Source: an uncultured bacterium
GTDB lineage: Bacteria > Krumholzibacteriota > Krumholzibacteriia > JACNKJ01
Direction of reading: 5' to 3'
Assembly (NCBI GenBank): GCA_963695095.1
Contig: CAVOFT010000001.1
Location: forward strand, 2,667,849 to 2,731,848
Length of the DNA: 64,000 nt
The notes beneath the pieces were generated by a model. It had not been told where the DNA came from and made no database searches. It worked only from the letters and a program-made list of their open reading frames with translations. Shown here piece after piece: positions 4,817 through 21,584 of the stretch. The position numbers were made by a program, and so were the translations under genes. The number at the start of each line of letters is the position of its first letter. Positions within the stretch are counted from its first letter, which is position 1.

Positions 4817-5869
4817 GTGGCGGACGAGAATCGAGGGCGACCGGCCCTCGCCTTGCTCGTCGCCCTCGCCGCCGGCTGCGCCCGCGAGGCGCCGCCGCGG
4901 CGCTTCGAGTTCCCCAGCATGGGCACGGCGGCTGCCCTGGAGCTGCGCGGTGCCGAGAGCGCTCGCGACAGCCTCGCGCTCGCCCGGGTGCAGGCGCGCT
5001 TCGCCGCCGTCGAGGCCGCCATGAGCACCTGGGACCGGGACTCCGAGCTCTCCCGGGCGAACCGCGCGCCCGTCGACTCCGCCTTCTCGCTGTCCCCGCT
5101 CGCCGGCGACTGCCTGGCCCTCGCCCTCGAGTTGCGCGCCGCCAGCGGCGGCGCCTTCGAGCCCGGCGCCGGGCCACTGATGCGGCTCTGGGGATTCACC
5201 CGCCGCGAGGGCCGCCTGCCCGATCCCGACAGCCTCGCTGCGCTGCTGCCCGCCCTCGGCGCCTACAGCTACGAGCCGCCCGCCCGGCGCCTGACGCGGC
5301 GCCACCCGGCCGTGGCCCTGGACCTGGGCGGCATCGCCAAGGGCTACGCCCTCGACCTGGCGGCGGCGGACCTGCGCGCCCTGGGCCTGCGCGCGGCCTT
5401 GATCGACCTGGGCGGCAACCTCTACTGCCTCGGCGAGGCCGCGCCGGGCGAGGCCTGGCAGGTGGGCATCCGCGATCCCCTGGATCGCGAGCGCATGTTC
5501 GCCGCCCTGGCCCTGCGCGATGAGGCCGTGGCCACCAGCGGCTCCTACGAGCGCTTCGTCGACGATCGCGGGCCGCCGCTACGGGCACATCATGAATCCC
5601 GCCACGGGCCGGCCCGCCGAGGGTCTGCTCAGCGCCACCGTGGTCTGCGCCGAAGCGGGGCTCGGCGACGGGCTCTCCACGGCGCTCTTCGTCCTCGGCC
5701 CCGGCGCGGCCGAGGCCCTGCTGCGCGGCCGCCTACCCCGAGGCGCTGGCGGTGCTGGTGTCGGCGGAGGACGGGGATCGCCTGCTGCGTGCGCGCGAGC
5801 GCCGGCCTCAGGGGCCGCCTGCGCATCCTGCCCGCGGACGCGGCGCGCTGCCGGATCGAGTTCTTCTAG
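4817..5869 (+). CDS. apbE: ApbE-family FAD:protein FMN transferase with lipoprotein signal; about three apparent frameshifts at roughly 5575, 5740 and 5805.
   Basis: Signal/lipobox [11 protein letters not shown], then ApbE motifs [35 protein letters not shown] and, in the second frame (ORF 5520..6017), [25 protein letters not shown]. The C-terminus (...[19 protein letters not shown]) returns to the first frame. The gene converges on the rnf operon, whose RnfG/RnfD are flavinylated. Confidence 0.75.
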
Positions 5870-6559
5870 GCCCGCTTGGCCGCCGGCTCCTCGTTCAGGT
5901 GGCAGAGCACGCAGTTGCCGCAGTCCATCTCCCGCGGCGGCTCGTAGGTCTCGCCGGCCCGCAGGGCGCGGCGCTCCTCGAGCCGGTTCATCCCGGCCAG
6001 CAGCAGGCCCAGGGTGAGGAAGGCGCCCGGCGGCAGGATCATCACCAGCACCGGCGGGAAGCTCGGCGCCGAAGAGCGAGAGGCCGAGCAGGCTGCCGTT
6101 GCCGAGCAGCTCCCGCAGGATCGCCCAGCGACATCAGGGCGAGGGTGAAGCCGAGGCCCATGCCCAGGCCGTCGGCCAGGGAGGCGCGAACGCCGTTGCG
6201 GCTGGCGAAGGCCTCGGCGCGGCCCAGGATGATGCAGTTGACCACGATCAGCGGGATGAAGAGGCCCAGGCTCCGGTGCAGCGCGAGGCAAGTAGGCGTG
6301 CATCACCAGGTCGACGATGGTCACGAAGCAGGCGATGACCACGATGTAGGCCGGGATGCGCACCTTGCGCGGGATGAAGCCGCGCAGCATGGCGATGATC
6401 AGATTGCTGCAGACGAGCACGAAGGTGGCCGCCAGGCCCATGCCGAGCGCCGTTCTCCACCGAGGTGGTGACGGCCAGCGTGGGACACAAGCCCAGCATG
6501 AGGCGGAAGATGGGATTCTCGTTCCAGAGCCCGCGCGTGAAGGTGCTGGTCAAGCTCAT
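5866..6559 (-). CDS. rnfE: Rnf electron-transport complex subunit E, pieced together from three ORF fragments (at least three apparent frameshifts).
   Basis: Fragments [37 protein letters not shown] (6248..6559), [50 protein letters not shown] (5866..6441 frame), [41 protein letters not shown] (6042..6245) and a C-terminus ...[29 protein letters not shown]. Together they make a canonical RnfE/RnfA-family 6-TM protein. Confidence 0.75.
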
Positions 6560-7177
6560 GGCGCGACCTCCGTCGTGCTGCTGTCGCAGCGGCCGCCCGG
6601 GGCGCGGCGTCCACCTGCGGGCGATCGGCGGCGTAGCGGGCGAGGGCCTCGCCGATGGCGCCGGCCAGGGCCCGCCCCGTCACCGTGGCGCCGGTGACCG
6701 CGTCGAGATCGCCGCCGTCGGCCTTCACCCGCCAGTCCGTGTCCGCCAGCGCATGGCCGGCGTAGAAGCGCGCGAGCAGTGCGGGATCGGCGTACTTGGC
6801 GCCCAGGCCCGGCGTCTCGGCGTGGCGCAGGATGCGCAGGCCACTGACACTGCCCTGGGCATCCACGCCGAGCATGACGCTCGATCTCGCCGGAGTAGCC
6901 CGTCTTGCTGAGGGCCTTGAAGGCCGCCCCGACGGGCGCCTCGCCCTGGTAGCCGCGCCAGTAGCTGCGCTCGCCGCCGCCGTCGGCCAGGTCCACGCGG
7001 TCGGCGTCGGGGGCGTTGTCGAAGGGCGGCATCACCGCGGCCACGGCCTCCATGCGCTCGCGCAGCATGGCCTGGCGGATGGGCTCGCGGGTCGTGGCGT
7101 CCACCTGGCTCAGCAGGAGGGCGGCGATGCCGCAGATCAGGGCCAGGCGCAGGCCACAGGTTCAGGGTCTCCTTCAT
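6556..7177 (-). CDS. rnfG: Rnf complex subunit G (FMN-binding), with apparent frameshifts.
   Basis: MKETLNLW start overlaps the rnfD stop (ATGA). Further fragments: [75 protein letters not shown], then [83 protein letters not shown] (FMN_bind with TGATxT). Confidence 0.7.
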
Positions 7178-8169
7178 GCCGCCTTCCTCTCCTCGAAGAG
7201 CTTGCGGCCGCTGCCGAAGACCCGCGGCCGCGTGGCGCGGTCGATCAGCGGCGTGGCCGCGTTCATGAGCAGGATGGCGAAGCTGACGCCCTCGGGATAG
7301 CCGCCCCAGAGGCGGATCAGCGCGGTGAGCAGGCCGCAGCCGAGCGCCGAAGATCAGCATGCCCCGGCGCGTGACGGGGCTGGTGACCATGTCGGTGGCC
7401 ATGAAGAAGGCGCCGAGCATGAGCCCGCCCGAGAGCAGGTGGAAGAGCGGCGAGGCGTAGCGCGCGCGGTCCACCAGCCAGGGGATGCCGCGTCACCAGG
7501 GCCAGCGCAGCCAGGAAGCCGACCGGGATCTGCCAGCGGATGTGTCCGCGCCAGAGCAGGTAGAGGCCGCCCAGCAGCAGCGCGAGCACGCTCACCTCGC
7601 CGAGGCTGCCGCCGCGCAGGCCGACGAGCAGCTTCCAGGCGGGAGCCAGGGCCAGCTCGTCGGCAGCGCCTTGCCCAGCGCCAGGCCCTCGCGCAGAACG
7701 CCCAGCGGCGTGGCGCCGGTGGCCGCGTCCAGGCGCAGGGGGCCGGCCGGCAGGGCCCAGGTGGTCATCTGCACCGGGAAGGAGATGAGCAGGCAGCACG
7801 CGGGCCACGAGGGCGGGATTGAAGGGATTGTAGCCGAGCCCGCCGTAGATCTGCTTGGCGATGACGATGGCGACGAAGGCGCCGATGAGCGACCATCCAC
7901 CAGGGACTCGTCGAGGGCAGGTTCATGGCGAGGAGCACGCCCGTGACCGCCGCGCTGAGGTCGTGCAGGCGACCGGGCCGGTGGAGGATGCGCAACATCG
8001 CCCACTCGAAGAGGAGGCAGCCCCGCACCGCGACCAGGAGCACGCGCAGGGCGGGCAGGCCGAAGAACCAGAGCCCCACGAGCAGGGCGGGAGTCAGCGC
8101 GATGAGCACGTCGCGCATGATGCGCGGAATCTCGCGATCGCCGTGCACGTGCGGCGAGCTGCTCATCAC
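7174..8169 (-). CDS. rnfD: Rnf complex subunit D, with apparent frameshifts.
   Basis: N-terminus [37 protein letters not shown]; middle [39 protein letters not shown]; C-terminus [22 protein letters not shown]...[48 protein letters not shown]. These lie in three different track ORFs: 7765..8169, 7317..7808 and 6725..7474. Confidence 0.7.
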
Positions 8170-8272
8170 GAGCAGGGCGGCGGCGGCGCGGCCTTGCTCG
8201 GCGTCGCCGGGTCCGCGCCCCGGCCGCTGTCGATCTGCTCGTCGCTCATCGCTCTTCGCCCCTCCCCGCGGC

Positions 8273-9595
8273 CTAGGCCGCGCCCCGTTTGCTCTGCTCG
8301 GCCTTGAGTTCCGCCTTGCCCCGCCGGAACAGCTGCACCAGCGGTCGGAAGGACGGACAGACGTAGGCGCAGCTGCCGCACTCGATGCAATCGCCCACCC
8401 GGTAGTCGGCGAGGTCCGCGAAGCGGTTCCGCTCGGCGAGCACGCCCATCGCGCTGGGCACCAGGCCCATCGGGCAGGCGTCGACGCAGGCGCCGCAGCG
8501 GATGCAGGGATCGGCCAGGAACTGGCTCAGGCGCTCGGCGGGCAGGCAGAGGATGCCGCTGGTGCCCTTGATCACCGGCACCTCGAGGTTGAACTGGCCC
8601 ATGCCCATCATCGGCCCGCCGAAGATGACCTTGCGCGATCTGTCGGCTTCAGGCCGCCGCAGTGGTCGATGACGTCGGCGAGCAGGCGTGCCCACGCGCA
8701 GGCGCAGATTCGCCGGGCGGGCGATGCCCTCGCCGGTGACCGTCGTCACCCGCTCGATGAGCGGCAGACCCGCTTGCACGGCCGCCCAGGCCGCCACCGC
8801 CGTGCCGACGTTCTGGACCAGGCAGCCCACGTCCATGGGCAGGCCGCCGGCCGGCACGCTGCGCCCGGTGAGCGCATAGATGAGGTGCTTCTCCGAGCCC
8901 TGCGGATACTTCGCCTCCAGCAGCACGAACTCGGCCGCCACATCCGCCGGACAGGCGCCGCGCAGGGCGGCCAGGGCGTCGGGCTTGTTGGCCTCGACGC
9001 CGACGACGACGCGCTTCACGCCGAGCACGCGCGCCATCAGGCCGACACCCTCCATCACGGCCGCGGCCTGCTCGAGCATGACCCGGTGGTCGCTGGTGAG
9101 GTAGGGCTCGCACTCGGCGCCGTTGAGGATGAAGGTGTCGATGGGCTTGTCCGCCGGCGGGCTCAGCTTGACGTGCGTGGGGAAGGTGGCCCCCCCCATG
9201 CCGACCAGGCCGCCGTTCTTCAGCGCCTCGCGCAGCGCCGCCGCTTCGAGCCGGCGCCAGTCGCCCAGGGGCGCGAGGCCTTCCCAGAGGCGATCCTCGC
9301 CGTCGGCCTCGATCTCGACGGCGGGCAGGTTGCGCCCCAGAGGATGCGGCCAGTCCTTCACTGCCTTCACGGTGCCGCTGGTGGGCGCGTGCACGGGCAC
9401 GGAGACGAATCCCTGCGGCGTCGAGAGCGGCTCGCCCTTGGCGACTTTCTGCCCCTTGGCCACGATCGGCGTGCCGGGCGCTCCCAGGTGCTGGGCGAGG
9501 GGGACGGCATAGCGCACCGCCAGCGGCAGCGTCTCCACGGCCAGGGTGGCCGTTTCCTTGTGGTAGTCGGGGTGGACCCCGCCCTTGAAGCGCAT
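8273..9595 (-). CDS. rnfC: Rnf complex subunit C (NuoF-like NADH/FMN-binding, 2x[4Fe-4S]); a double frameshift around 8650-8700.
   Basis: MRFKGGVHPDYHKETATLAVETLPLA..., SGTVKAVKD, GGLVGMGGATFPTHVKL, ILNGAECEPYLTSDHRVM, VTGEGIARPANLRLRVGTP, KVIFGGPMMG, and the ferredoxin motifs CIRCGACVDACP and CIECGSCAYVCP. The track ORF 8273..9988 over-extends upstream; the true start MRFKGG is about 9595. Confidence 0.8.
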   Translation of the reverse strand: MRFKGGVHPDYHKETATLAVETLPLAVRYAVPLAQHLGAPGTPIVAKGQKVAKGEPLSTPQGFVSVPVHAPTSGTVKAVKDWPHPLGRNLPAVEIEADGEDRLWEGLAPLGDWRRLEAAALREALKNGGLVGMGGATFPTHVKLSPPADKPIDTFILNGAECEPYLTSDHRVMLEQAAAVMEGVGLMARVLGVKRVVVGVEANKPDALAALRGACPADVAAEFVLLEAKYPQGSEKHLIYALTGRSVPAGGLPMDVGCLVQNVGTAVAAWAAVQAGLPLIERVTTVTGEGIARPANLRLRVGTPARRRHRPLRRPEADRSRKVIFGGPMMGMGQFNLEVPVIKGTSGILCLPAERLSQFLADPCIRCGACVDACPMGLVPSAMGVLAERNRFADLADYRVGDCIECGSCAYVCPSFRPLVQLFRRGKAELKAEQSKRGAA

Positions 9596-9615: not shown

Positions 9616-10416
9616 CTAGTGGCGCGCCGCGCCCAGCTCGATGACACGGATCGAGCCGTTGGGGCACAGGTCGATGAGGGTTTCGTCCGCGGGAGCCTGC
9701 GCGTAGTCGACGCGGGCCAGCCAGTCCGTGACGAGGATGCCGCCGGCGGCCGCCTTCTCGCACTTCTTGCAGCCGATGCAGGCCACCTGGCAGGCCTTGC
9801 GCGCCAAGGGCCCCTTGTCGGTGTTGCTGCAGAGCACGTGGATGCGCGCGCTCTCGGGCACGAGCTCGATGATGCCCTTCGGGCAGGCCGCCACGCAATG
9901 CCCGCAGGCCGTGCAGCGCTCGGGGATGATGCGGGCGATCCCGCTCTCGAGGATCTCGATGGCGCCGAAGGAGCAGGCCTCCTGGCAATCGCCGAGGCCG
10001 AGGCAGCCCTGCAGGCAGAGCTTGTCGCCGCCGCCGAGCTGGGCGGCGCTGGCGCAGCTGGCCATGCCGTTGTAGAGAAAGCGCCGCGGCGCGAGGTCGC
10101 TGCCGCCCTGGCAGTGCACCAGGGCCACCCGCCGCTCCTTGAGCTCGACGCTGAGCCCCATCAGGGCGGCCACGGCCTGCGCCGTGGCGGCACCCCCCAC
10201 CGGACAGCCATCCGGAGGCGCCTTGCCGCCCACCACGGCGCCGGCGAAGTCATTGCATCCGGCAAAGCCGCAGCCGCCGCAGTTGGCGCCGGGCAGCAGA
10301 TCCAGGAGCGCTTCCTGTCGGGGATCGATCTCCACGGCGAAGAAGCGCGCGGCCCAGCCGAGCCCCAGACCGGAGATGAGCCCGAGGCCGGCGAGCACTG
10401 TGGTGGCGATGAGCAT
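9616..10416 (-). CDS. rnfB: Rnf complex subunit B (N-terminal TM helix plus a Cys-rich cluster region and 4Fe-4S dicluster ferredoxin domain).
   Basis: MLIATTVLAGLGLISGLGLGWAARFFAVE..., CGGCGFAGCNDFAGAVV..., CTACGHCVAACPKGIIE, CIGCKKCEKA. The ORF is intact. Confidence 0.85.
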   Translation of the reverse strand: MLIATTVLAGLGLISGLGLGWAARFFAVEIDPRQEALLDLLPGANCGGCGFAGCNDFAGAVVGGKAPPDGCPVGGAATAQAVAALMGLSVELKERRVALVHCQGGSDLAPRRFLYNGMASCASAAQLGGGDKLCLQGCLGLGDCQEACSFGAIEILESGIARIIPERCTACGHCVAACPKGIIELVPESARIHVLCSNTDKGPLARKACQVACIGCKKCEKAAAGGILVTDWLARVDYAQAPADETLIDLCPNGSIRVIELGAARH

Positions 10417-10436: not shown

Positions 10437-11027
10437 TCAGACGAGCCCGGCAAAGCCCATGAATGCCAGCGAGAGGATGCCGGCCGTGATGAGCGCGATG
10501 GCGGTGCCCTTGAAGGCCCGCGGGGTGTCGGCCAGATCCAGCACCTCGCGGATCCCCGAAAAGAGAAGAATGGCCAGGCCGAAGCCGACGGCGCCGGCGA
10601 AGCCGAAGAGGGCGGTCTGGAGCAGGTTGTGCTCGTTCTGGATGTTCAGCACCGCGACGCCCAGCACCGCGCAGTTGGTGGTGATCAGCGGCAGGAAGAT
10701 GCCCAGGGACCGGTAGAGCGGCGGGCTCAGCTTCTGCAGCGCGAGCTCCACCAGCTGGACCATGGCGGCGATGATGAGGATGAAGGCGAGGATCTGCAGG
10801 AAGCGCAGGTCCTGCGGCACCAGGGTGGCGCCCGGCTTCAGCACGCCGTGATAGACGAGCCAGCTCACCACGCTGGCCAGGGTCATCACGAAGATGACGG
10901 CGCCGGTCATGCCCAGCGCCGTGCCGAGCTTCTTGGAGACGCCCAGGAACGGGCAGATGCCGAGGAAGCGGCTGAGGACGAAGTTGTTGACCAAGACGGC
11001 GCTGATCGCCAGGAGCAGCAGGTCCAC
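10437..11027 (-). CDS. rnfA: Rnf complex subunit A (6-TM).
   Basis: [54 protein letters not shown]...[17 protein letters not shown]... is a classic RnfA/NqrE-family sequence. The ORF is intact. Confidence 0.9.
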
Positions 11028-11155: not shown

Positions 11156-11677
11156 TCAGGCCCGGCCGCGGACGCCATCGCCCAGCTCCTGCTCGCGCTC
11201 CAGGGCCGGCCGCTTGTACTGCTCGTAGTCGCTGAGCAGCTTGGCCTTGTCGAAAACCAGCTCCTCGCGGCTGTGGCTGGCCACCTCGTAGAGGTCGCTC
11301 ATCACGATGGCCTCCTTGGGGCAGGCCTCCTCGCAGTAGCCGCAGTTGATGCAGCGGCCCATGTCGATGTCGAACTCCTCGGGCACCCGCTCGCGCATCT
11401 CCTGATCGCGAAATTCGCCGATCTTGATGGTGATCGCCCGCGGTGGGCAGACGACTTCGCAGAGCTTGCAGGCCACGCACTTCTCGATGCCGTCGGCGCC
11501 CATCACGAGGCGCGGCATGCCGCGGAAGCCCGGCGGCGTCGGCCAGCGCTGCTCGGGGTAGGCCTGCACCACCGAGCGGTGGAACATGTTGCGGAAGGTG
11601 ATGCCCAGCCCCCCCACGATCGCAGGCAGGTAGAGCCGCTCGAACCAGCCTTGCTTGATCTGGCGCTTAACCTTCAT
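11156..11677 (-). CDS. nuoI: NADH-quinone oxidoreductase subunit I-like protein (2x[4Fe-4S] ferredoxin, NuoI/TYKY family).
   Basis: MKVKRQIKQGWFERLYLPAIVGGLGITFRNMFHRSVVQAYPEQRWPTPPGFRGMPRLVMGADGIEKCVACKLCEVVCPPRAITIKIGEF...FDIDMGRCINCGYCEEACPKEAIVMSDLYEVASHSREELVFDKAKLL aligns along its length with NuoI (YPEE..P..FRG...G.E.CVAC.LC...CP..AI...RCI.CG.CEEACP). The start lies inside track ORF 11156..11983 and overlaps the nuoG 3' end by about 10 nt. Confidence 0.85.
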   Translation of the reverse strand: MKVKRQIKQGWFERLYLPAIVGGLGITFRNMFHRSVVQAYPEQRWPTPPGFRGMPRLVMGADGIEKCVACKLCEVVCPPRAITIKIGEFRDQEMRERVPEEFDIDMGRCINCGYCEEACPKEAIVMSDLYEVASHSREELVFDKAKLLSDYEQYKRPALEREQELGDGVRGRA

Positions 11678-13511
11678 GCCGACCTGCGACCTCCAGGCTG
11701 CTCGCCGCGGCCGCGGCGAGCAGGGGCGCGAACCAATCCGTGTCCAGCGGCCGGCGCCCGGCCACCGGGGTCCAGCTCTGCAGCCGTCGCGCGAGACCCC
11801 AGCTGTTCGTGAGCGTGCCGACCAGGTCGATGGGCGCCCGCCGGGCGAGCACCACCGCTGCCGTGGCGCGCGCCGCGGCCAGGCCGCCGCTCTGCACGAT
11901 GAGGGCGCCGCCGGCCAGGTCCAGGGCTTGCTCCCAGCGGGCGGGATCCGCGAAATCCGCAGCCGGATCGAGGCCGAAGGCATAGACGAGGTCCGCTTCG
12001 CCGCCCTCGAGTAGCCCGAGCGGATCCGGCCCCGGAGCCGTGGCCGCGGCCGCCAGCAGGCCGCGGCGATTCATCCCCTCGAGCAGCCAGAGCAGGCGGG
12101 TTTCGCCCCCGCGCGCCGCCAGCGTCGCCAGGAAGCGTGCGTCGATGGCCCCGCTGGTCACCAGCCGATTGCTGAGGGCCACCAGCAGTCCGCCGGGCTC
12201 GGCGAGGAACTGCGCGCCTTCGCCGGCCAGCCAGGTGGCCGGCGACGCGCTGATGCGCTGCCACCGGTGATTGCCTTCGCCGAGCGGAGCCCAGGCGCCT
12301 TCCTGGACGAGGGTGACCGCGCCGGCCGTCTCGCCGGCCGCCCCGCCGAGCAGGCGCAAGGCCAGCAGCGGATGGGCCAGCTCCGGATCCTCCCCCAGCA
12401 CGAGCACGCGCTGGAAGCGGCCGAGGCCGGCGAGCGTGTCGAGTTCCAGGCCCGAGCGCGTCAGGGCGGCGAGAAAATCCAGCTCGGCGGCGAGGGCCGG
12501 ATAGGGGCGGGCCGCGGTGCCCAGGGCCAGCGCGAGGGCGCCCAGGGCCGCCAGTTCCTCATCGGTGGCGCGACTGCCGACGACCAGCAGCGGCTGCTTC
12601 GCGGCGGCAAGCAGCTCCCGCGCCCGCGCGGCGGCCTCCTCGGTATCGACGGGCACCTGCACGCCCTGCCGGCGCACGAGGCTCTCGGCCAGGCCGGCCT
12701 CCAGGGGATAGTCGAAGCGGCCGCGATCGCAGAGCCACCAGGCGTTGACCTCGTGGTCGACATCCGCCGTCACCCGCTGCAGCGCGGGGCCTTTCCACCA
12801 GCTCGTGAGCGAGCAGCCGAGCGAGCAGCCGCCGCAGCTGCTGGCCACGGCGCGCATTTCCCAGGGTCGCGCCTGGAAGCGGAATTCCCGCGTCGTCAGG
12901 GCGCCGACCGGGCAGATGTCGGCGAGGTTGCCGGTGAAGCCGCTGGTCAGCGGCTGGCCCTCGAAGATGTCCACGCTGACGTGGTCGCCGCGCAGGCGCA
13001 GGAAGAGCTCCTCGCGGCCCACGATGTCGCGCTGGTAGCGCACGCAGCGGCTGCAGAGGATGCAGCGCTCGGCGTCGAAGATGATGTGCTCGCCGATCAC
13101 GCGGTGCTTGACAGCGGTGTTCTTGGCGTCCGCCATGCGACTGTGGCCGGGTCCGTGCCGGCGCGTGGTCTCCTGCAGGGGGCACTCGCCGCCCTTGTCG
13201 CAGATCGGGCAGTCCAGGGGATGGTTGATGAGGATGAACTCGAGCACGCCCTGCCGAGCCTTGTGCACCTTCTCCGAGTTCGTCGTGATCTCCATCCCGG
13301 CGGCGGCGCTCAGCGTGCAGCCGGGCACGAGCTTGGGCGCGCCTTTCATTTCCACCAGGCACATGCGGCAATTGCCGTCCACGCCGATGCCGGGGTGATA
13401 GCAGAAGTGCGGGATCTCGTCGCCCAGCTCGGTGGAGAGCTCGATGAGCGGCTTGCCGGCCTCGGTCTCGATCTCGCGGCCGTTGTAGATCATCGTCACC
13501 TTGTCGGGCAT
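11667..13511 (-). CDS. nuoG: NADH-quinone oxidoreductase subunit G-like protein (75-kDa Fe-S subunit, 614 aa), with an Ala-rich, apparently degenerate C-terminal molybdopterin-like half.
   Basis: N-terminal 2Fe-2S ferredoxin fold (CYHPGIGVDGNCRMCLVE), HPLDCPICDKGGECPLQ, CILCSRCVRYQRDIVG, ICPVGALT, CGGCSLGCSL. The ORF is intact and its ATG shares one base with the nuoBD stop (TGATG). Confidence 0.85.
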   Translation of the reverse strand: MPDKVTMIYNGREIETEAGKPLIELSTELGDEIPHFCYHPGIGVDGNCRMCLVEMKGAPKLVPGCTLSAAAGMEITTNSEKVHKARQGVLEFILINHPLDCPICDKGGECPLQETTRRHGPGHSRMADAKNTAVKHRVIGEHIIFDAERCILCSRCVRYQRDIVGREELFLRLRGDHVSVDIFEGQPLTSGFTGNLADICPVGALTTREFRFQARPWEMRAVASSCGGCSLGCSLTSWWKGPALQRVTADVDHEVNAWWLCDRGRFDYPLEAGLAESLVRRQGVQVPVDTEEAAARARELLAAAKQPLLVVGSRATDEELAALGALALALGTAARPYPALAAELDFLAALTRSGLELDTLAGLGRFQRVLVLGEDPELAHPLLALRLLGGAAGETAGAVTLVQEGAWAPLGEGNHRWQRISASPATWLAGEGAQFLAEPGGLLVALSNRLVTSGAIDARFLATLAARGGETRLLWLLEGMNRRGLLAAAATAPGPDPLGLLEGGEADLVYAFGLDPAADFADPARWEQALDLAGGALIVQSGGLAAARATAAVVLARRAPIDLVGTLTNSWGLARRLQSWTPVAGRRPLDTDWFAPLLAAAAASSLEVAGRHEG

Positions 13512-15232
13512 CAGCGGTCACACTCCCCCATGACGGGATCCAGACTGGCGATGATGGCCACGGCATCGGCGATCATCGCCCCCTCGAGCATCGTGCGCAG
13601 GATCTGCAGGTTGTTGAAGGACGGACTGCGAATCTTGCAGCGATAGGGGTGGGCACTGCCGTCGCTGACGAGGTAGAAGCCCAGCTCGCCCTTGGGCGCT
13701 TCGATCGCCGTGTAGACCTGGCCCAGCGGCGGCCGGATGCCCTCGGAGATGAGCTTGAAGTGGTGGATCAACTCCTCCATCGAGTCCAGAACCCGCTCCC
13801 GGGCGGGCAGCACGTAGTCGCGGTTGTCCGAACTCACCGGGCCGTCCGGCAGCTCGGCGATGGCCTGGCGCACGATCTTGGCGCTCTGGCGCATCTCCTC
13901 GATGCGGACGAGGTAGCGGTCCATGCAGTCGCCGCGCTCGCCGGTCACCGACTCGAAGTCGAACAGCTCGTAGTCGAGATAGGGCGCCGCCTTGCGGATG
14001 TCGAAATCGACGCCCGCGGCGCGCAGGATGGGACCCGTGAGCCCGTAGCCGATCGCCTGCTCGGCGCTGATGATGCCCACGTCCACGTTGCGGTCCAGCC
14101 AGATGCGGTTCTTGTTGAGCAGGCCCTCCACCTCGCCGAGGGTCTTCTCGCACTCGTCGAGGAAGGCGAGCACCTTGTCCGTCCAGCCGGCGGGCAGGTC
14201 GCGGGCCACGCCGCCGATGCGCGTGTAGCTGGTGGTCAGGCGCGTGCCCGTGAGCTCCTCGAACAGGTTGTAGAGCAGTTCGCGCATCTGGAAGGTGTAG
14301 AAGAAGACCGTCCCCGCGCCGAGATCGAGGGCGTAGGTGCCCACCGAGAGCAGATGGGCGCTGATGCGCGCCAGCTCGGCGGCGATCACCCGGATGCGCT
14401 TGGCGCGCACGGGAATGTCCAGGCCGATCAGGTTCTCGACGGCGAGCGCGTAGGCCACGTTGTTGGACAGCGGGCTCATGTAGTCGAGGCGGTCCGTGTA
14501 GGGCAGGTAGTTGTGGTAGGTCTTCTCCTCGGCGATCTTCTCGTAGCCCCGGTGCAGGTAGCCCACGTGCGGCTGGCAGCGGACGATGATCTCGCCGTCC
14601 AGCTCCAGCACCAGGCGCAGGACCCCGTGCGTCGCCGGATGCTGGGGTCCCATGTTGAGGATCATCGTGCCGTCGCGGCTGGGCTCCAGGCGGGTCTCGA
14701 TGCCGGGCATGGGAATCTTGGGCGCATAGTGCTCGCGCGGCGCGTCCTTGAAGCTCTCGCGATCGACCACCCCACGCTGCATCTTGAGCAGGGCATCGAG
14801 CAGGGCATCCGGGCGCGGCGGGCAGCCGGGCAGGTAGACGTCCACCGGGATCACCCGGTCCAGCCCCTGCACCACCGAGTAGCTGTCGAACATGCCGCCC
14901 GTGCACAGGCAGGTGCCCATGGCGATCACGTACTTGGGCTCGAGCATCTGGTCGTAGATGCGCCGCACCACGGGGGCCATCTTGTTGGTGAGCGTGCCGG
15001 CGACGATCATCAGGTCGCTCTGGCGGGGCGAGAAGCGCATCGCCTCGGCGCCGAAGCGGGCCATGTCGTAGCGGCTGGCCACGGTGGCCATCATCTCGAT
15101 CGCGCAGCAGGAGATGCCCATCGGCATCGGCCAGAGCGAGTTCTTGCGCGCCCAGTTGCTCGCCTTGTCGACCGTCGTCGTGAGGACGTCGACGCCGAAA
15201 CCCTGGGACTGCGGATCGGGCTTGCTGCTCAT
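13511..15232 (-). CDS. Fused NuoB-NuoD protein (complex-I 20-kDa and 49-kDa subunit homologues in one polypeptide, about 45-aa linker, no NuoC module).
   Basis: N-terminal NuoB: [13 protein letters not shown]...[15 protein letters not shown]...[65 protein letters not shown], with the N2-cluster cysteines. C-terminal NuoD: [50 protein letters not shown]...[13 protein letters not shown]...[45 protein letters not shown]. There are no NiFe-hydrogenase Cys motifs. It is a single intact ORF (track 13511..15295; the first ATG giving MSSKPD is about 15232). Confidence 0.85.
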
Positions 15233-15326
15233 CCTGCCTCCGCGCGTGGGAAACCGTGGGTCTCCAAGATACTCAGCCCGGCAGCATAATTCCACGCGGG
15301 ACTAGCGTCAATCAGACAGGCCGGTC

Positions 15327-16682
15327 TCAATCGGCCTCGGCGTCCGTGGACGCGCGCGGCAGCGGCCAGGTCAGGGCCAGCAGCGAATCGGGCAGGCTGT
15401 AAAGCGTGGGATAGTCCAGGCGGCGCAGGGCCCGGCGACCCTGGCGACCGGGGCCGATCTCGAAGCCCAGTTCGCTGCCGTCTCTGAAGTGCAGCGTGAA
15501 GCGCTGGGCCTCGCTCGCCAGCCCCCAGTCGGCGAGCTGATCGTCGCGCGGCAGCAAGGCCTCCACGCGTTCGGTGGACAGCCGCAAGAGGCTGCCCAGG
15601 AAGGCGGCGACGGCCGGTCCGTCGAGCGCGCCGCCCGCGTCGCTCTTCCAGCGCCAGTCGTCGCCGGGCTCGCGCAGGGCCCGCTGGCCCGCGGGGCCAG
15701 CGATCGTCTCCACCTGGCCGGGCATGAAAACGAGCAGCACCGGCGAGAGGAAAGCGCTGAAGGACTCGAGCAGAGGAGCGCAGGTCACCGAGTCGAGCAG
15801 GAAGGCGTGCTGGCGATCGCGATTGCGGGCGTAGCTGAGCTCGAAATGCGGCCGGCCCAGCTCGAGCAGTCCGCCCTGTTTGCCGCCCCGCAGCAGGACC
15901 GTGAGCCGGGATCTCGGCGCAGCGAAGCCGAGCCCGGTGTCGGCGTCCTCCTCGACGCCGGCGAAGCCGATGATGCTCTCGCCCCAGAGCCGCTCGATCA
16001 ACCGGCCCACGGCGAGGTAGTCGGCCGGATAGGCCTCGGGTCGCTGGATCTCCCAGCCTCGCTCCCCTCGCGCCAGCACGAAGCGCCCGCGCGCGTTTTC
16101 GAATTCGAGTCGCTCCACCTCGTCCAGCGGGATGCCGCCCAGCGGCCGCTTGTCGGCCAGCTCGTAGCGGCCCTTGAGCGCATGCGTGCGCAGCAGGCTG
16201 GAGACGAGGGCCAGCGAGTCGCGCCAGCTCACCGCCACCCAGAGCCGTTTCTCGACAGGATTGAGATCGCCGAAGCGCAGCGTGTCGACGGTGCCGCCCC
16301 GCCCCAGGCGCAGGGTCAGGCGCGGGGAGACGAGGCCGAAGGCCGCCAGCTCCGCCGGCGTCGCCGGCGGCAACCAGCGCTCCACCTTCTGGCCGGCGAG
16401 CGTGGCCAGCAGGCGCTCGATCACCACGCTGTCGCCGGCATCCGTCACGGGTGCCGTGAGCCGCCAGGGCGCCGCCGCGTCCGCGCGCTCCACGCGCAGC
16501 GTCTTCTCGGGATAGGCCAGCTCGAACCAGCGCAACTCGTCGACGGCGCGCGGGTAGAGGTAGCCCGCGGCGAGACGCTGGGCGACGAGGGCCTCGTCGC
16601 CGCGATCGCGAAGCAGGACGAGCAGGGCAGCCAGCAGCACGAGGGCCAGCGCGGCCAGGGTGAGTCGCCACCTGAGGATCAC
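15327..16682 (-). CDS. DUF4340-family protein with an N-terminal TM anchor, the usual partner of GldG-type ABC accessory proteins.
   Basis: After a GC-driven over-extension, the plausible start is VILRWRLTLAALALVLLAALLVLL..., followed by soluble repeats. Gene order ATPase-permease-GldG-DUF4340 is a conserved arrangement. Confidence 0.5.
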   Translation of the reverse strand: MILRWRLTLAALALVLLAALLVLLRDRGDEALVAQRLAAGYLYPRAVDELRWFELAYPEKTLRVERADAAAPWRLTAPVTDAGDSVVIERLLATLAGQKVERWLPPATPAELAAFGLVSPRLTLRLGRGGTVDTLRFGDLNPVEKRLWVAVSWRDSLALVSSLLRTHALKGRYELADKRPLGGIPLDEVERLEFENARGRFVLARGERGWEIQRPEAYPADYLAVGRLIERLWGESIIGFAGVEEDADTGLGFAAPRSRLTVLLRGGKQGGLLELGRPHFELSYARNRDRQHAFLLDSVTCAPLLESFSAFLSPVLLVFMPGQVETIAGPAGQRALREPGDDWRWKSDAGGALDGPAVAAFLGSLLRLSTERVEALLPRDDQLADWGLASEAQRFTLHFRDGSELGFEIGPGRQGRRALRRLDYPTLYSLPDSLLALTWPLPRASTDAEAD

Positions 16683-18103
16683 GGCTGTCCTCCTTCGCCG
16701 AGGCCGCGACGGCGGGACCACCAGAGCCGCAGCGGCCAGGCCGAGAGCACGATCAAGGGCAGGGCGACCAGGGACAGCAGCAGGTAAAGCCGCCGCCCCG
16801 ACGGCGTGATCGGCAGCAAGCGCGCCGGCGGCAGCGCGGCACCGGGGGCCACGCGCTCCTGCGCCAGCCAGCCCAATCCCCCCAGCAGCAGGCGGCCGTT
16901 GCCATACCAATCCAGGTGCGCGGCGCTGATGAAGTGGCTGTCGCCCACCACGAGCAGCGGCCCGCCGCCCTGGGCGCTGCTGTCCGAGGCGGCCGCCAGC
17001 ACGAAGGGCCCGCGGCGATCGGTCGCCTCGTCGAGGTGGGCGCTGCCGTCGAAGGGCCCGCGCTCCTCGAAGCTGCGCTCGCCGCTGATGAGCAGGGGGC
17101 CGGGCGCGCCGGGCCCCTCACCGCTGAGGTCGAGGGCTCGAGCGAGAGGAAAGCAGGACGGCTCGGGCCGGGTGAGGAAGCCGCGCGTGGCGGGGTGCGC
17201 GGCATAGCGCGTGGCCACCGGAATCTCGAAGCCGCGATCCAGGGCGATGTTCTCCTCGCTGAAGTCGACGATGAAGCCCTCGCCCAGCGCGATGCCGCGC
17301 GTGGCGAGCAGCGGACCCAGGCCCGCGTCGCGCGAGGAGTCGGCCATCTCGGCCGCGGGATCGATGAGCAGGCAGAGCGCGCCGCCCGCGGCGAGGTAGC
17401 GCTCGAGGGCGGCGAGCACGCTGGCCGGCAGGCGCTGGTGCGGACCGGGAACAAGCAGCACCCCGGCGCCGGGTGCGGGCGCGGGCTCGCTGAGCGCCCA
17501 CCAGGGAAGCACCTGCCAGCCCTCGGCGCCGAGCAGGGTCGCCAGGGCGCTCAGGCTCTCGGGCCCGGCATCCTGGCCGGCCAGGCCCAGAGGCCGCAGC
17601 CCCGGCGCCTGGGCGACGGCAAGGCGCCGTCCCCCCTCCTCGCCGCGGCCCAGGGCGATGAAGGCGCGCGCCAGAGCGCGCTCGTCGAGGGAGTAGTCGC
17701 CGGTCGCGCTGCGCTCGGCCAGCAGGCGCTCGCTGGCGCCATCCAGCTCGATGAGCAGTTCGCCGGGCTCCTGGACGCCGGCCGCCATGGCGCGCGCCGG
17801 CTCGCGCCCGGGGTCGATGAAGCGCCAGCTCAGATCCGGCCGCAGCGCCTGGCAGGCCCCCAGCAGCGCGGCGGCGCGGCTGCGCTCCGGCTCCCGGTCG
17901 GGGAGAAAGAGCGTGATGCGCGGCGCGCCCGGGAGCGCCGCCAGGCTCTCGGCCGTGCGCGCCTCGAGGCTGTGGCGCGAGCCCGCGCTCAGATCCAGCC
18001 GCCAGCGCTGCCGGCCGCCGAGAGTGAGCAGCAGCGCGGCGGCCAGCAGCAGGGTCAAGCTGCGCACCCAGATCTGGGCGCGCGCGCTCGCGGCGGTGCT
18101 CAT
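16679..18103 (-). CDS. GldG-like ABC-type transport auxiliary protein (about 475 aa).
   Basis: Start MSTAASARAQIWVRSLTLLLAAALLL (TM), a large periplasmic body, and a C-terminal TM (LYLLLSLVALPLIVLSAWPLRLWW). The track ORF 16679..18856 is over-extended upstream by about 250 codons of Arg/Pro/Ala-rich GC artefact. Confidence 0.55.
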   Translation of the reverse strand: MSTAASARAQIWVRSLTLLLAAALLLTLGGRQRWRLDLSAGSRHSLEARTAESLAALPGAPRITLFLPDREPERSRAAALLGACQALRPDLSWRFIDPGREPARAMAAGVQEPGELLIELDGASERLLAERSATGDYSLDERALARAFIALGRGEEGGRRLAVAQAPGLRPLGLAGQDAGPESLSALATLLGAEGWQVLPWWALSEPAPAPGAGVLLVPGPHQRLPASVLAALERYLAAGGALCLLIDPAAEMADSSRDAGLGPLLATRGIALGEGFIVDFSEENIALDRGFEIPVATRYAAHPATRGFLTRPEPSCFPLARALDLSGEGPGAPGPLLISGERSFEERGPFDGSAHLDEATDRRGPFVLAAASDSSAQGGGPLLVVGDSHFISAAHLDWYGNGRLLLGGLGWLAQERVAPGAALPPARLLPITPSGRRLYLLLSLVALPLIVLSAWPLRLWWSRRRGLGEGGQP

Positions 18104-18884
18104 CGGCCGCCTCCCCGCAGGGCCTGCAGACGGCGGCGCGCGAGCTCCAGCCCCAGCGCCGTGAGGACGAGGAAGTAGAGCAGGTCCGCCGTGTCGAGCA
18201 GCCCCGCGAGCAGGGGTGCCAGATGGCCGAGCGCGGACAGGCTGACCAGCGCGCCGCCTGGAAAGCCCGTCGCGCCGGGACGCGCGAAGCCGCCCAGGAT
18301 CCACAGCAGGATCAGCAGCGCAAAGCCGCCGATCGCAGCCAGCAGCGGACTGCGCGTCAGACTGCTCACGAAGAGCGACAGGGCGAGGAAGGCCGCCGCG
18401 AGCAGCCCGATGCCGGCCAGCCCCAGCAGGAAACTCGGCCAGTGCAGGCTGCCGTAGCCGGTCAGGACGAGCTTGGGCAGGCAGGCCAAGACGAGCAGGG
18501 CCAGGAAGTAGAGCCAGGCGGCCAGCCACTTGCCCAGGACGAGCCGGCCCTCGCCCACGGGACTCGTCATCAAGAGCTCGAGGGTGCCGCTCTTGCGCTC
18601 CTCGGCGATGAGGTTCATCGCGAGCAGGGGCAGGAGCAGCAGGCTGAGCAGGGCGAGGGCGCCGAGATCCTGGCGCAGCAGGCTCTCGTTGAAGTCGAGG
18701 AAGGCGGGCGCCAGTCCCTGGCTGCGCATGCGCAGGCCGATCTCGGCGTTCGCCCGCAGGTAGCCCTGGAGATTGAGGATGCTGAGCGCGCCCGCGAGCA
18801 GCAGGAAGACCCCGCCCAGGAGCCCGGCCAAGGGCGAGTTGAACAGGGCGCGCCACTCCCGGCGCAAGATTGCCGCCAGCACTC

Positions 18885-18888
<4 letters not shown>
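18100..18888 (-). CDS. ABC-2 family transporter permease (GldF-like).
   Basis: MRVLAAILRREWRALFNSPLAGLLGGVFLLLAGALSIL... has 6 predicted TM segments. The start overlaps the upstream ATPase gene's stop. Confidence 0.65.
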
Positions 18889-19814
<926 letters not shown>

Positions 19815-19845
19815 CCCTGCGAGTTAGTCCTTCGCGGCCGGCCTG

Positions 19846-21264
19846 TCAACCGCGATCGCCGGCCGGCTCCCCGGCGCCGGCCAGCCCCGCCGCCGCGAGC
19901 AGAGCGGCCAGGCCCGCCGGGCTGCTCTCGGCAGTGGCCAGCCGGCGGGCGAAGGGCAGGGTCCAGCCCCAGACGCCGTTGCACAGCAGGGCCGGGGCCG
20001 CGCCGCGGGCGGCGCGCTGGGCCAGCTCGGCCTGCCGCGCGGGCGCGGGCGGCGTCCGCCCGAGATAGAGGTAGACCGGCGCGGTCGACGCCTCGTCCGC
20101 GCCCAGCCGCCGCGGAGCCGTGCCCATCGCGCGAGCATGGGCTCCCAGGTAGGCTTCCGCGGGCCAGGAGCCCAGGGGACCGAGCTCGAGATCGACGGGC
20201 GTGCCCGCCGCAAGCGGCCGCCAGTCGCCGCCGCCGGGCACGAAGACCGCCGCGCCGGCGATGTCCTCGAGATCCGGCGCCGGCCGCGGCGGCGTGCCGG
20301 CGCTCGGCAGCGCGGCGCGGAAGGCGAGCCAGCGCTCGCCGGCCTCGTCCAGCCAGGCCTGCCGCAACTCGCCGCGCTCCAGCGCGGCCGCCATGGCGTC
20401 CAGCAGGAACTCGGCGCCCGGCTCCCAGCGCGCCAGCGTGAGCAGGTGACAGCCCGCGGCGAGGGCGGCGGCGCCGCGATCCGCGGCCGGGATCACGGCG
20501 GCCCCGGCCATCTCGAGGGCGTCGGTGATGACGAGCCCGGCAAAGCCCAGCTCCCCGCGCAGACGATCGCGCATGAGATCGGGGCGGAAGGTGGCCGGCC
20601 GGGCGTCCGCATCCCCGGCGAGCTGCAGGTGCGCGCTCATGAGGGCGGGCGCCGCGGCCCCGGCGCGGAAGGGAATCAGGGCCTGCCCGCGGTCCGCCGG
20701 CACGGCAGGCAGGCTGAGGTGGCTATCCTCCAGGCTGTCGCCGTGGCCGGGGTAGTGCTTGATGACGGCCAGCACGCCGCCCGCCGCCAGGCCGGCGAGG
20801 GCGGCGGCCACCGCTGCAGCGGCCGCCGCGGAATCGCCGCCGAAGCTGCGCGTGCCGATCACGGGATTGCGGGCGCCGTCGTCGAGGTCGGCCAGGGGAG
20901 TGATCAGGACCTCGATGCCCTGCGCGCGGGCGGCCGCCGCCATCGCCTGGTGGCAACCCTGCAGAGCGGGCAGACCGGCCATCGCCTGGGCGCGGGGCGC
21001 CGGCCAGGGCAGGGCATGCAGCTGCTGGATCCAGCCGCCTTCTTCATCGAGAAAGACCAGCAGCTCGCGTCCGGCCGCCTCCTCGAGGCGACGGCGCAGC
21101 GGAGTCAGCGAGGCGGCGCCTGCGGGCAGGTTGTCGCGGAACAGGATGACGGCCGGCGGCGCGTGGCGCTCGAGCAGGCGGAGGAAGTCCGCAGGCAGTT
21201 CGGGGCCGCGCCAGCCGAGCAGCCAGTGGGCCCCGATCCGGCGGTGCGCGGCCGGCGCGATCAC
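19846..21264 (-). CDS. nagZ: Beta-N-acetylhexosaminidase (glycoside hydrolase family 3, NagZ-like).
   Basis: GH3 signatures IKHYPGHGDSLEDSHLSLP and GFAGLVITDALEMAGA. The track ORF 19846..21417 is slightly over-extended at the N-terminus. Confidence 0.75.
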   Translation of the reverse strand: MIAPAAHRRIGAHWLLGWRGPELPADFLRLLERHAPPAVILFRDNLPAGAASLTPLRRRLEEAAGRELLVFLDEEGGWIQQLHALPWPAPRAQAMAGLPALQGCHQAMAAAARAQGIEVLITPLADLDDGARNPVIGTRSFGGDSAAAAAAVAAALAGLAAGGVLAVIKHYPGHGDSLEDSHLSLPAVPADRGQALIPFRAGAAAPALMSAHLQLAGDADARPATFRPDLMRDRLRGELGFAGLVITDALEMAGAAVIPAADRGAAALAAGCHLLTLARWEPGAEFLLDAMAAALERGELRQAWLDEAGERWLAFRAALPSAGTPPRPAPDLEDIAGAAVFVPGGGDWRPLAAGTPVDLELGPLGSWPAEAYLGAHARAMGTAPRRLGADEASTAPVYLYLGRTPPAPARQAELAQRAARGAAPALLCNGVWGWTLPFARRLATAESSPAGLAALLAAAGLAGAGEPAGDRG

Positions 21265-21584
21265 GCCAGCGGCTCCACGCGCACGGCCGTGCCGTAGGCG
21301 AGCAGCTCGGAGGCGCCGGGCATGATCTCCGCAGTGACGAAGCGCAGGCCGAGGACGGCGTTGGCGCCCAGTTCCTCCGCCTCGCCGCTCAAGCGATCCA
21401 GGGCCTGCTCCCGGCATTCGGCCATCATCTTCGTGTACTCGAAGACCTCGCCGCCCACCAGGTTCTTCAACTGGGCCATGACGTCGTGGCCGAGGTGGCG
21501 CGTGCGCACGGTGTTGCCGCGCACGAGGCCCAGCACCTCGACGATGCGCTGTCCGGCCAGCGCTTCCGTTGTGGCCAGAATCAT
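21261..21584 (-). CDS. YbjQ/UPF0145-family protein (107 aa).
   Basis: MILATTEALAGQRIVEVLGLVRGNTVRTRHLGHDVMAQLKNLVGGEVFEYTKMMAECREQALDRLSGEAEELGANAVLGLRFVTAEIMPGASELLAYGTAV matches the YbjQ fold along its length. Confidence 0.7.
   Translation of the reverse strand: MILATTEALAGQRIVEVLGLVRGNTVRTRHLGHDVMAQLKNLVGGEVFEYTKMMAECREQALDRLSGEAEELGANAVLGLRFVTAEIMPGASELLAYGTAVRVEPLA

Follow-up and report, generated by a model that had tools for sequence, protein, structure and literature searches.

Can the quinone module of complex I be built with NuoB joined directly to NuoD and with NuoC left out? To our knowledge, NuoC (the 30-kDa subunit, NDUFS3) is counted as one of 11 core subunits ancestral to all complex I enzymes, and mitochondria begin to assemble the quinone module from it. 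The question is raised by a gene, which we call nuoBD, that encodes a NuoB continued in frame by a NuoD and lies in a 64,000-nucleotide stretch of DNA from an uncultured bacterium of the Krumholzibacteriota (NCBI GenBank assembly GCA_963695095.1, contig CAVOFT010000001.1, positions 2,667,849 to 2,731,848; the whole stretch is referred to below as the window). Fusions of C with D and of B, C and D are already known (PMC4758237, PMC4453560), and we found no description of a B-D fusion or of a NuoC-less complex I in the searchable full-text literature. Our analysis indicates that the fusion is real and that nuoBD is probably the fused N2 and quinone-site subunit of a complex I-type quinone oxidoreductase whose remaining genes are dispersed. 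With B and D in one chain and nuoC gone from the operon, this large family amounts to a natural test of what NuoC is for, and nuoBD itself would give structural studies a less complex quinone module to work on.

The fused gene and its two halves

The gene and its parts were delimited as follows; residue numbers refer throughout to the product of 573 amino acids (aa), except for NCBIfam match positions, which refer to a 594-aa open reading frame (ORF).

13511..15232, minus strand: nuoBD, fused NuoB-NuoD gene, 573 aa plus stop (Pfam, NCBIfam, the GGAGG motif and homologue lengths)
up to GTG 15295, minus strand: longer version of the ORF, 594 aa, the extent given by the preliminary description
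14759..15232, minus strand: NuoB core, residues 1-158 (PF01058, TIGR01957; alignment to Thermus Nqo6)
14666..14758, minus strand: tether, residues ~159-189, proline-rich, variable in sequence and fixed in length
13514..14665, minus strand: NuoD domain, residues 190-573 (TIGR01962; phmmer against PDB; Foldseek)

ORF calling and translation of the window returned one uninterrupted frame at 13511..15295 on the minus strand. The frame that the preliminary description had reported is therefore real and unbroken, but it runs on the minus strand and translation almost certainly begins at the ATG at 15232, which predicts a product of 573 and not 594 aa, because this ATG is preceded by GGAGG at a spacing of 4 nt and the close homologues (identity up to 100%) are all 573 aa long. 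Scanned against Pfam, the 594-aa ORF matched Oxidored_q6 (E = 5e-28) and Complex1_49kDa (E = 2e-117), with no third domain in the product even at E ≤ 1, and NCBIfam placed its NuoB models at residues 35-186 and the NuoD model TIGR01962 at residues 210-594. Both collections thus found B and D alone, in agreement with the earlier claim of a single polypeptide with no space for, or trace of, NuoC; profile searches of the product for a cryptic NuoC domain returned no Complex1_30kDa, and the same domain (PF00329) gave no match in 58 family members even at E ≤ 10.

The NuoB half scored well above threshold on both of its models (97.7 bits on PF01058, cut-off 27; 229 bits on TIGR01957, cut-off 143), and its residues 16-156 aligned without gaps to residues 19-159 of Thermus Nqo6. 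The cysteines that ligate cluster N2 (motifs CC, C and CPP) are present as C42, C43, C108 and C137 and were invariant in alignments of 12 and of 58 family members. The half had been called a complete NuoB, which holds for the core with its four N2 cysteines but not for the C-terminus, where the last ~20 residues of Thermus Nqo6 are missing.

Between the halves, the spacing from CPPRP to NxGPxHP was 50-53 residues in 57 family members, over a stretch of variable sequence with 14% proline; because the spacing is fixed while the sequence varies, the tether is constrained in length. Residues 159-189 formed a coil in the AlphaFold2 (AF2) model (predicted local distance difference test score, pLDDT, 76; predicted template modelling score, pTM, 0.78), so that the unstructured part covers about 30 residues rather than the ~45 first ascribed to the linker.

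The NuoD half matched TIGR01962 over positions 2-386 of 386 with 567 bits against an equivalog cut-off of 459, which supports the description of this half as a complete NuoD. A phmmer search of PDB returned 49-kDa subunits (E = 1e-132), among them mitochondrial ones, with which the half shares ~50% identity, and Foldseek superposed the D half of the AF2 model on solved 49-kDa subunits with TMt values of 0.94-0.96 and a root-mean-square deviation of ~1.9 Å. Residues 166-573 aligned to residues 2-409 of Thermus Nqo4 (offset 164), so that Nqo4 H38, Y87 and D139, which we take to be the residues that hold the quinone head group, map to H202, Y251 and D303; all three were invariant in the alignments of 12 and of 58 members. 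Reading of the translation revealed none of the CxxC motifs of NiFe hydrogenases in the NuoD half, the C-terminus of which reads DPVMGECDR. By these comparisons the NuoD half is a canonical 49-kDa subunit of complex I.

The nuoBD family and its relatives

Searches for the same B-D architecture in other taxa found it in Krumholzibacteria, Bdellovibrionota and unclassified metagenome-assembled genomes (MAGs). At least 120 database proteins share it; the best 120 matches are 56-100% identical to nuoBD, measure 558-604 aa (a few incomplete entries aside), all carry exactly PF01058 plus PF00346, and, where named, come under Krumholzibacteria, Bdellovibrionota/-ales or "Pseudomonadota" MAGs. Metagenome contigs were also screened with a DNA pattern that combined the NuoB motif WPMPMG with the NuoD motif NxGPxHP at a distance of 451-478 nt, and all 45 loci retrieved in this way (GC content 33-71%) had the B-D architecture; an alignment-driven scan of contigs was swamped by generic NuoB and NuoD motifs and returned mostly Verrucomicrobia. 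Over its 1722 bp, nuoBD showed no indels against two relatives at ~92% DNA identity, and mean column identity across the family was 67%. Because the architecture is conserved across many independent assemblies, sequence comparison confirmed the fusion as real and excluded chance or an assembly artefact. The further worry that a sequencing error had joined two genes was laid to rest by the lack of indels and by the same in-frame junction in independent assemblies.

The family is abundant in databases but is not described there as a fusion: its members are always entered as "NADH dehydrogenase (quinone) subunit D". Because the fusion proteins carry only this name, B, C and D can be miscounted in subunit inventories of Bdellovibrionota and Krumholzibacteriota. 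If the long nuoD reported in PMC13147790 belongs to the nuoBD family, it would be a B-D and not a C-D fusion, and the 14-subunit inventories would be wrong.

The known fusions differ from nuoBD in their partners. NuoCD of E. coli (NF008728) and HycE likewise fuse neighbouring subunits of the quinone module, and the D half of nuoBD aligns over its full length (PDB 7awt_D); their partner, however, is an N-terminal NuoC, whereas that of nuoBD is NuoB, with NuoC absent. The NF008728 model was matched at positions 212-598 only, with a score of 436 bits (cut-off 840). NuoBCD (NF009808/PRK13292, 791 positions) shares with nuoBD the order of B first and D last, and NF009808 was the best-scoring NCBIfam model for nuoBD, at 692 bits, under its cut-off of 1156 and in two separate stretches. 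Of the two, the best lies on the D part (model positions 403-791) and the other presumably on the B part; the model positions left unmatched between them are, in our view, the C part. NuoBCD has a NuoC domain between B and D, whereas the 58 nuoBD family members have none at E ≤ 10.

One locus places B and D side by side as separate genes in the same NuoC-less order. In a Candidatus Eisenbacteria contig (L013, 8788-10972; loci retrieved in this work are given L numbers), nuoB is followed by a stop, 4 nt and then nuoD-nuoG-nuoI, with no nuoC; its NuoB ends in a low-complexity tail of the PSAMPPSAT type and its NuoD starts with a long extension. This arrangement may be either the state before fusion or a secondary fission. 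In a rough neighbour-joining tree without support values, the L013 NuoD was placed next to the main clade of BD sequences, from which four others (P0107, P0117, P0119 and P0120) branched apart, and the NuoD of Verrucomicrobia formed a neighbouring clade. For both halves, the closest unfused relatives among the matches listed were encoded in 14-gene operons of Verrucomicrobiota (L010, L018, L062 and L072; B ~68% and D ~60% identity), in which, unlike in nuoBD, separate nuoB, nuoC and nuoD are followed by E, F, G, H, I and J-N in one operon. These verrucomicrobial loci were also considered as B-C-D fusions on account of a single tblastn match of ~2.3 kb, and were rejected as such when stops and frame changes resolved the match into separate genes.

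The nuoBD-nuoG-nuoI unit and the enzyme it may serve

Two further nuo genes follow nuoBD on the same strand.

11667..13511, minus strand: nuoG-like gene, 614 aa, ATG overlapping the nuoBD stop (TGATG) (Pfam, TIGR01973)
11156..11677, minus strand: nuoI, 173 aa, overlapping the end of nuoG (NCBIfam matches)

With these overlaps, nuoBD, nuoG and nuoI appear to be co-translated. The NuoG-like protein carries the Pfam domains Fer2_4, NADH-G_4Fe-4S_3, Fer4_Nqo3 and Molybdop_Fe4S4 and keeps its Cys/His cluster-ligand motifs, which we assign to clusters N1b, N4, N5 and N7. NuoI scored above threshold on NF004538 (138.7 bits, cut-off 135) and on TIGR01971 (128 bits, cut-off 113), is 37% identical to residues 1-138 of E. 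coli NuoI with the N-terminal segment retained, and has two CxxCxxCxxxCP (4Fe-4S) motifs. Taken together, NuoG, NuoI and NuoB keep every conserved Cys/His cluster-ligand motif; B, D, G and I all lack a donor site and a membrane anchor.

The conserved unit is nuoBD-nuoG-nuoI: BD-G(-I) synteny was found in loci of the Krumholzibacteria type and the Bdellovibrionota type and in unclassified loci, over a GC range of 33-71%. BD-G-I or BD-G was present in L002, a MAG of the Krumholzibacteriia type, in L003, L008, L090 and L120 (74-82% identity), in the Bdellovibrionota loci L001 and L009, and in the further loci L005-L007. nuoI was not adjacent to BD in L006 and L007 and lay 9 kb away in L094 and L123, and scattering of genes is normal for this family, for which reason a gene missing from the BD cluster may still be present in the genome. 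The DNA covered here comprised the 64-kb window and ~10 kb around the BD genes of relatives. When the full set of 13 Nuo proteins of E. coli was searched against the window by tblastn, only B, D, G and I were matched. For NuoC, E. coli probes and in-frame verrucomicrobial probes alike gave no match across the window and nine BD loci; as a control, tblastn with the E. coli NuoC probes detected NuoC in verrucomicrobial operons. Small ORFs of 120-173 aa lie just upstream of BD in L001 (9477-9950), L005 (9420-9941) and L006 (9607-9969). Such ORFs were considered as substitutes for NuoA or NuoC in Bdellovibrionota loci and were set aside, having no Pfam match and, on inspection, being mutually dissimilar.

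We propose that NuoBD, NuoG and NuoI would form one electron wire, N1b-N4-N5-(N7)-N6a-N6b-N2, ending at the intact quinone head-group site (His, Tyr and Asp) of the NuoD half. Within this family, nuoC is gone from its place between nuoB and nuoD, and the tether of fixed length now holds B to D covalently. Since such a quinone site is expected to work only when docked on NuoH, the membrane arm (nuoA, H and J-N) and the donor to NuoG, be it NuoEF or another, would be encoded elsewhere in the genome; the membrane partner of BD-G-I is one that we infer and do not observe, because no membrane-arm gene was seen in the BD contigs examined. That the quinone residues, and the D half as a whole, are so extremely conserved speaks for canonical partners. 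Other organisms with dispersed nuo/ndh genes are known. A 2026 comparative study found an orphan nuoAHJKLMN cluster in every Bdellovibrionota genome it examined (PMC13147790), and orphan AHJKLMN clusters are mentioned in papers on other organisms too.

Several observations weigh against this assignment. The NuoB half of the AF2 model is of low confidence. The NuoG-like protein scores 385 bits on TIGR01973, under the equivalog cut-off of 470, and although aligned over positions 4-594 of 606 it is, on this profile, divergent. Genes for NuoH, A, J-N, E, F and C were absent from the 64-kb window and from the ~10-kb flanks of ~60 BD loci. Finally, a draft Krumholzibacterium genome is reported to contain just "a few subunits" of NADH:quinone oxidoreductase (PMC7914226).

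In the likeliest of the alternatives, BD-G-I would be a self-contained soluble or peripheral Fe-S oxidoreductase that no longer forms part of a proton-pumping complex I and that, without NuoH, hands its electrons on to an acceptor which is soluble or a lipid. In its favour, the three-gene unit is solitary at all loci examined, and the draft genome is said to hold few Nuo subunits. Invariant quinone residues and a D half ~50% identical to its mitochondrial counterparts are hard to explain without canonical partners, however, and NuoI retains its N-terminal segment; B, D, G and I alone would have no catalytic donor site, and the orphan membrane-arm cluster of Bdellovibrionota needs a peripheral arm (PMC13147790). 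We therefore consider such an enzyme unlikely.

Under the preferred assignment of nuoBD to a complex I-type enzyme with dispersed genes, it is quite possible, though short of probable, that the enzyme truly lacks NuoC, as opposed to NuoC being encoded elsewhere. More tentatively still, we suggest that a widespread bacterial clade comprising Krumholzibacteriota, Bdellovibrionota and others may build a working NuoC-less complex I from A, H and J-N plus BD, G and I, possibly without NuoE/F and with another donor entering through NuoG, in which the B-D tether would take over the clamping and assembly role of NuoC. Other systems show partial resemblances to nuoBD. The ndh genes of cyanobacteria are dispersed yet build a working membrane enzyme, and the Ech-type (group 4e) membrane NiFe hydrogenases, which are relatives of complex I, function with subunits resembling NuoB and NuoD but have no recognisable homologue of NuoC. 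The cysteine motifs of the NiFe site are retained in Ech, whereas nuoBD has the quinone-site residues of complex I and no CxxC motifs. The Campylobacter-type complex I is without NuoE/F, keeps NuoG and uses an alternative donor (Spero 2015, PMC4453560). Campylobacter-type and cyanobacterial systems resemble nuoBD in their partial or scattered gene sets but differ from it in that NuoC/NdhJ is retained and B is not known to be fused to D.

Rnf genes and other neighbours

Beyond nuoI lies an rnfABCDGE cluster on the same strand, followed by apbE.

10437-11027, minus strand: rnfA (Pfam; collinear with the L119 operon)
9616-10416, minus strand: rnfB (Pfam; collinear with the L119 operon)
8273-~9596, minus strand: rnfC (Pfam; three 1-bp insertions at 8633-8686 relative to L119)
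~7173-8241, minus strand: rnfD, frame-disrupted, the RnfD profile split over four ORFs in different frames
~6556-7176, minus strand: rnfG, frame-disrupted
~5865-6559, minus strand: rnfE, frame-disrupted, the RnfE profile split over two ORFs
4817-5869, plus strand: apbE, with frame-breaking indels relative to L119

This neighbourhood invites the idea, raised in the preliminary description, that a NuoC-less module docks on the adjoining Rnf complex as a Nuo-Rnf hybrid. In its favour, rnfABCDGE directly follows nuoBD-G-I on the same strand in the window, in L002 (94% identity) and in L119 (95%), and RnfC has a NuoF-like domain. The adjacency is limited to these relatives of at least 94% identity, however: no Rnf genes stood next to the BD cluster in the Krumholzibacteria-type relatives L003, L008, L090 and L120, at 74-82% identity, or in any Bdellovibrionota-type locus. 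Relative to L119, in which all six rnf genes are intact, the window showed at least 15 indels that break the frame, none of them in homopolymers and most only 1-2 bp long, all within 5563-8686 (rnfC, D, G, E and apbE), with at least 12 of a length not divisible by 3 in the rnfD/G/E region (5865..8241), and none in the adjoining 6.5 kb of nuoBD, nuoG, rnfA and rnfB; the rnf genes of L002 were more degraded than those of the window. Because the indels are confined to rnf and apbE and L002 is in a worse state, selection seems to be maintained on nuoBD-G-I while rnf, by this comparison a recent neighbour, is decaying. Synteny thus largely refutes the hybrid, which we regard as very improbable. The window at 5563-8686 resembles a decaying rnf-apbE cluster, and a local assembly problem there is also possible.

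The same frame errors in rnf could be taken to mean that the fusion is itself an artefact of sequencing or assembly that joined two genes, or a decaying pseudogene, a reading to which we give virtually no credence in view of the lack of any indel in nuoBD (1722 bp) when compared with two relatives of 92% DNA identity, the in-frame junction common to at least 120 proteins and 45 metagenome loci from unrelated assemblies, and the strong conservation across the family (mean column identity 67%).

Genes for Fe-S cluster carriers were seen beside BD in several relatives. In a BD subgroup without nuoG (L094, at ~9.7-10.1 kb, and L115, L123, L128 and L132), BD is followed by a conserved 109-aa PF01521 protein of the IscA/ErpA type; a NifU-domain protein lies downstream of BD in L093, and an Mrp/NUBPL-type ATPase near BD in L094 (7503-8597). 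These neighbours (Fe-S_biosyn, NifU and Mrp/NUBPL) look like a dedicated delivery of Fe-S clusters.

A second, stand-alone gene of the NuoB family with the four N2 cysteines kept was observed on BD-bearing Bdellovibrionota contigs. The paralogue shares 76% identity with NuoB from a canonical operon of 11 genes (L135) and only ~50% with the B half of the fusion from its own genome. It was considered as part of a nuo cluster and rejected as such, the gene being either a suf-operon member or a solitary paralogue. As the former, a NuoB-family protein of 166-167 aa is the first gene of a suf operon in L133 (10001-10501), L137 (10001-10504) and L138 (3211-3714); the operons of these three Bdellovibrionota/-ales MAGs have the order Rrf2, NuoB-like, SufB, SufC, SufD, SufS and FeS_assembly_P, and the end of the NuoB-like gene overlaps the start of sufB. 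As the latter, it lies between a DHH/DHHA1 gene and an FAD-linked oxidase in L005 (16745-17245, ~5 kb from BD-G-I) and L134 (10001-10507), with its closest operon-borne relatives in the 11-gene nuoABCDHIJKLMN operons of L135 and L136.

Directly upstream of nuoBD in the window, at 15327-21417 on the minus strand, lies a block encoding a GH3 glycosidase, an ABC ATPase, an ABC-2 permease, an ABC_transp_aux/DUF4350 (GldG-like) protein and a DUF4340 protein, and this block from GH3 to DUF4340 is syntenic in L002 and L003 and partly so in L008.

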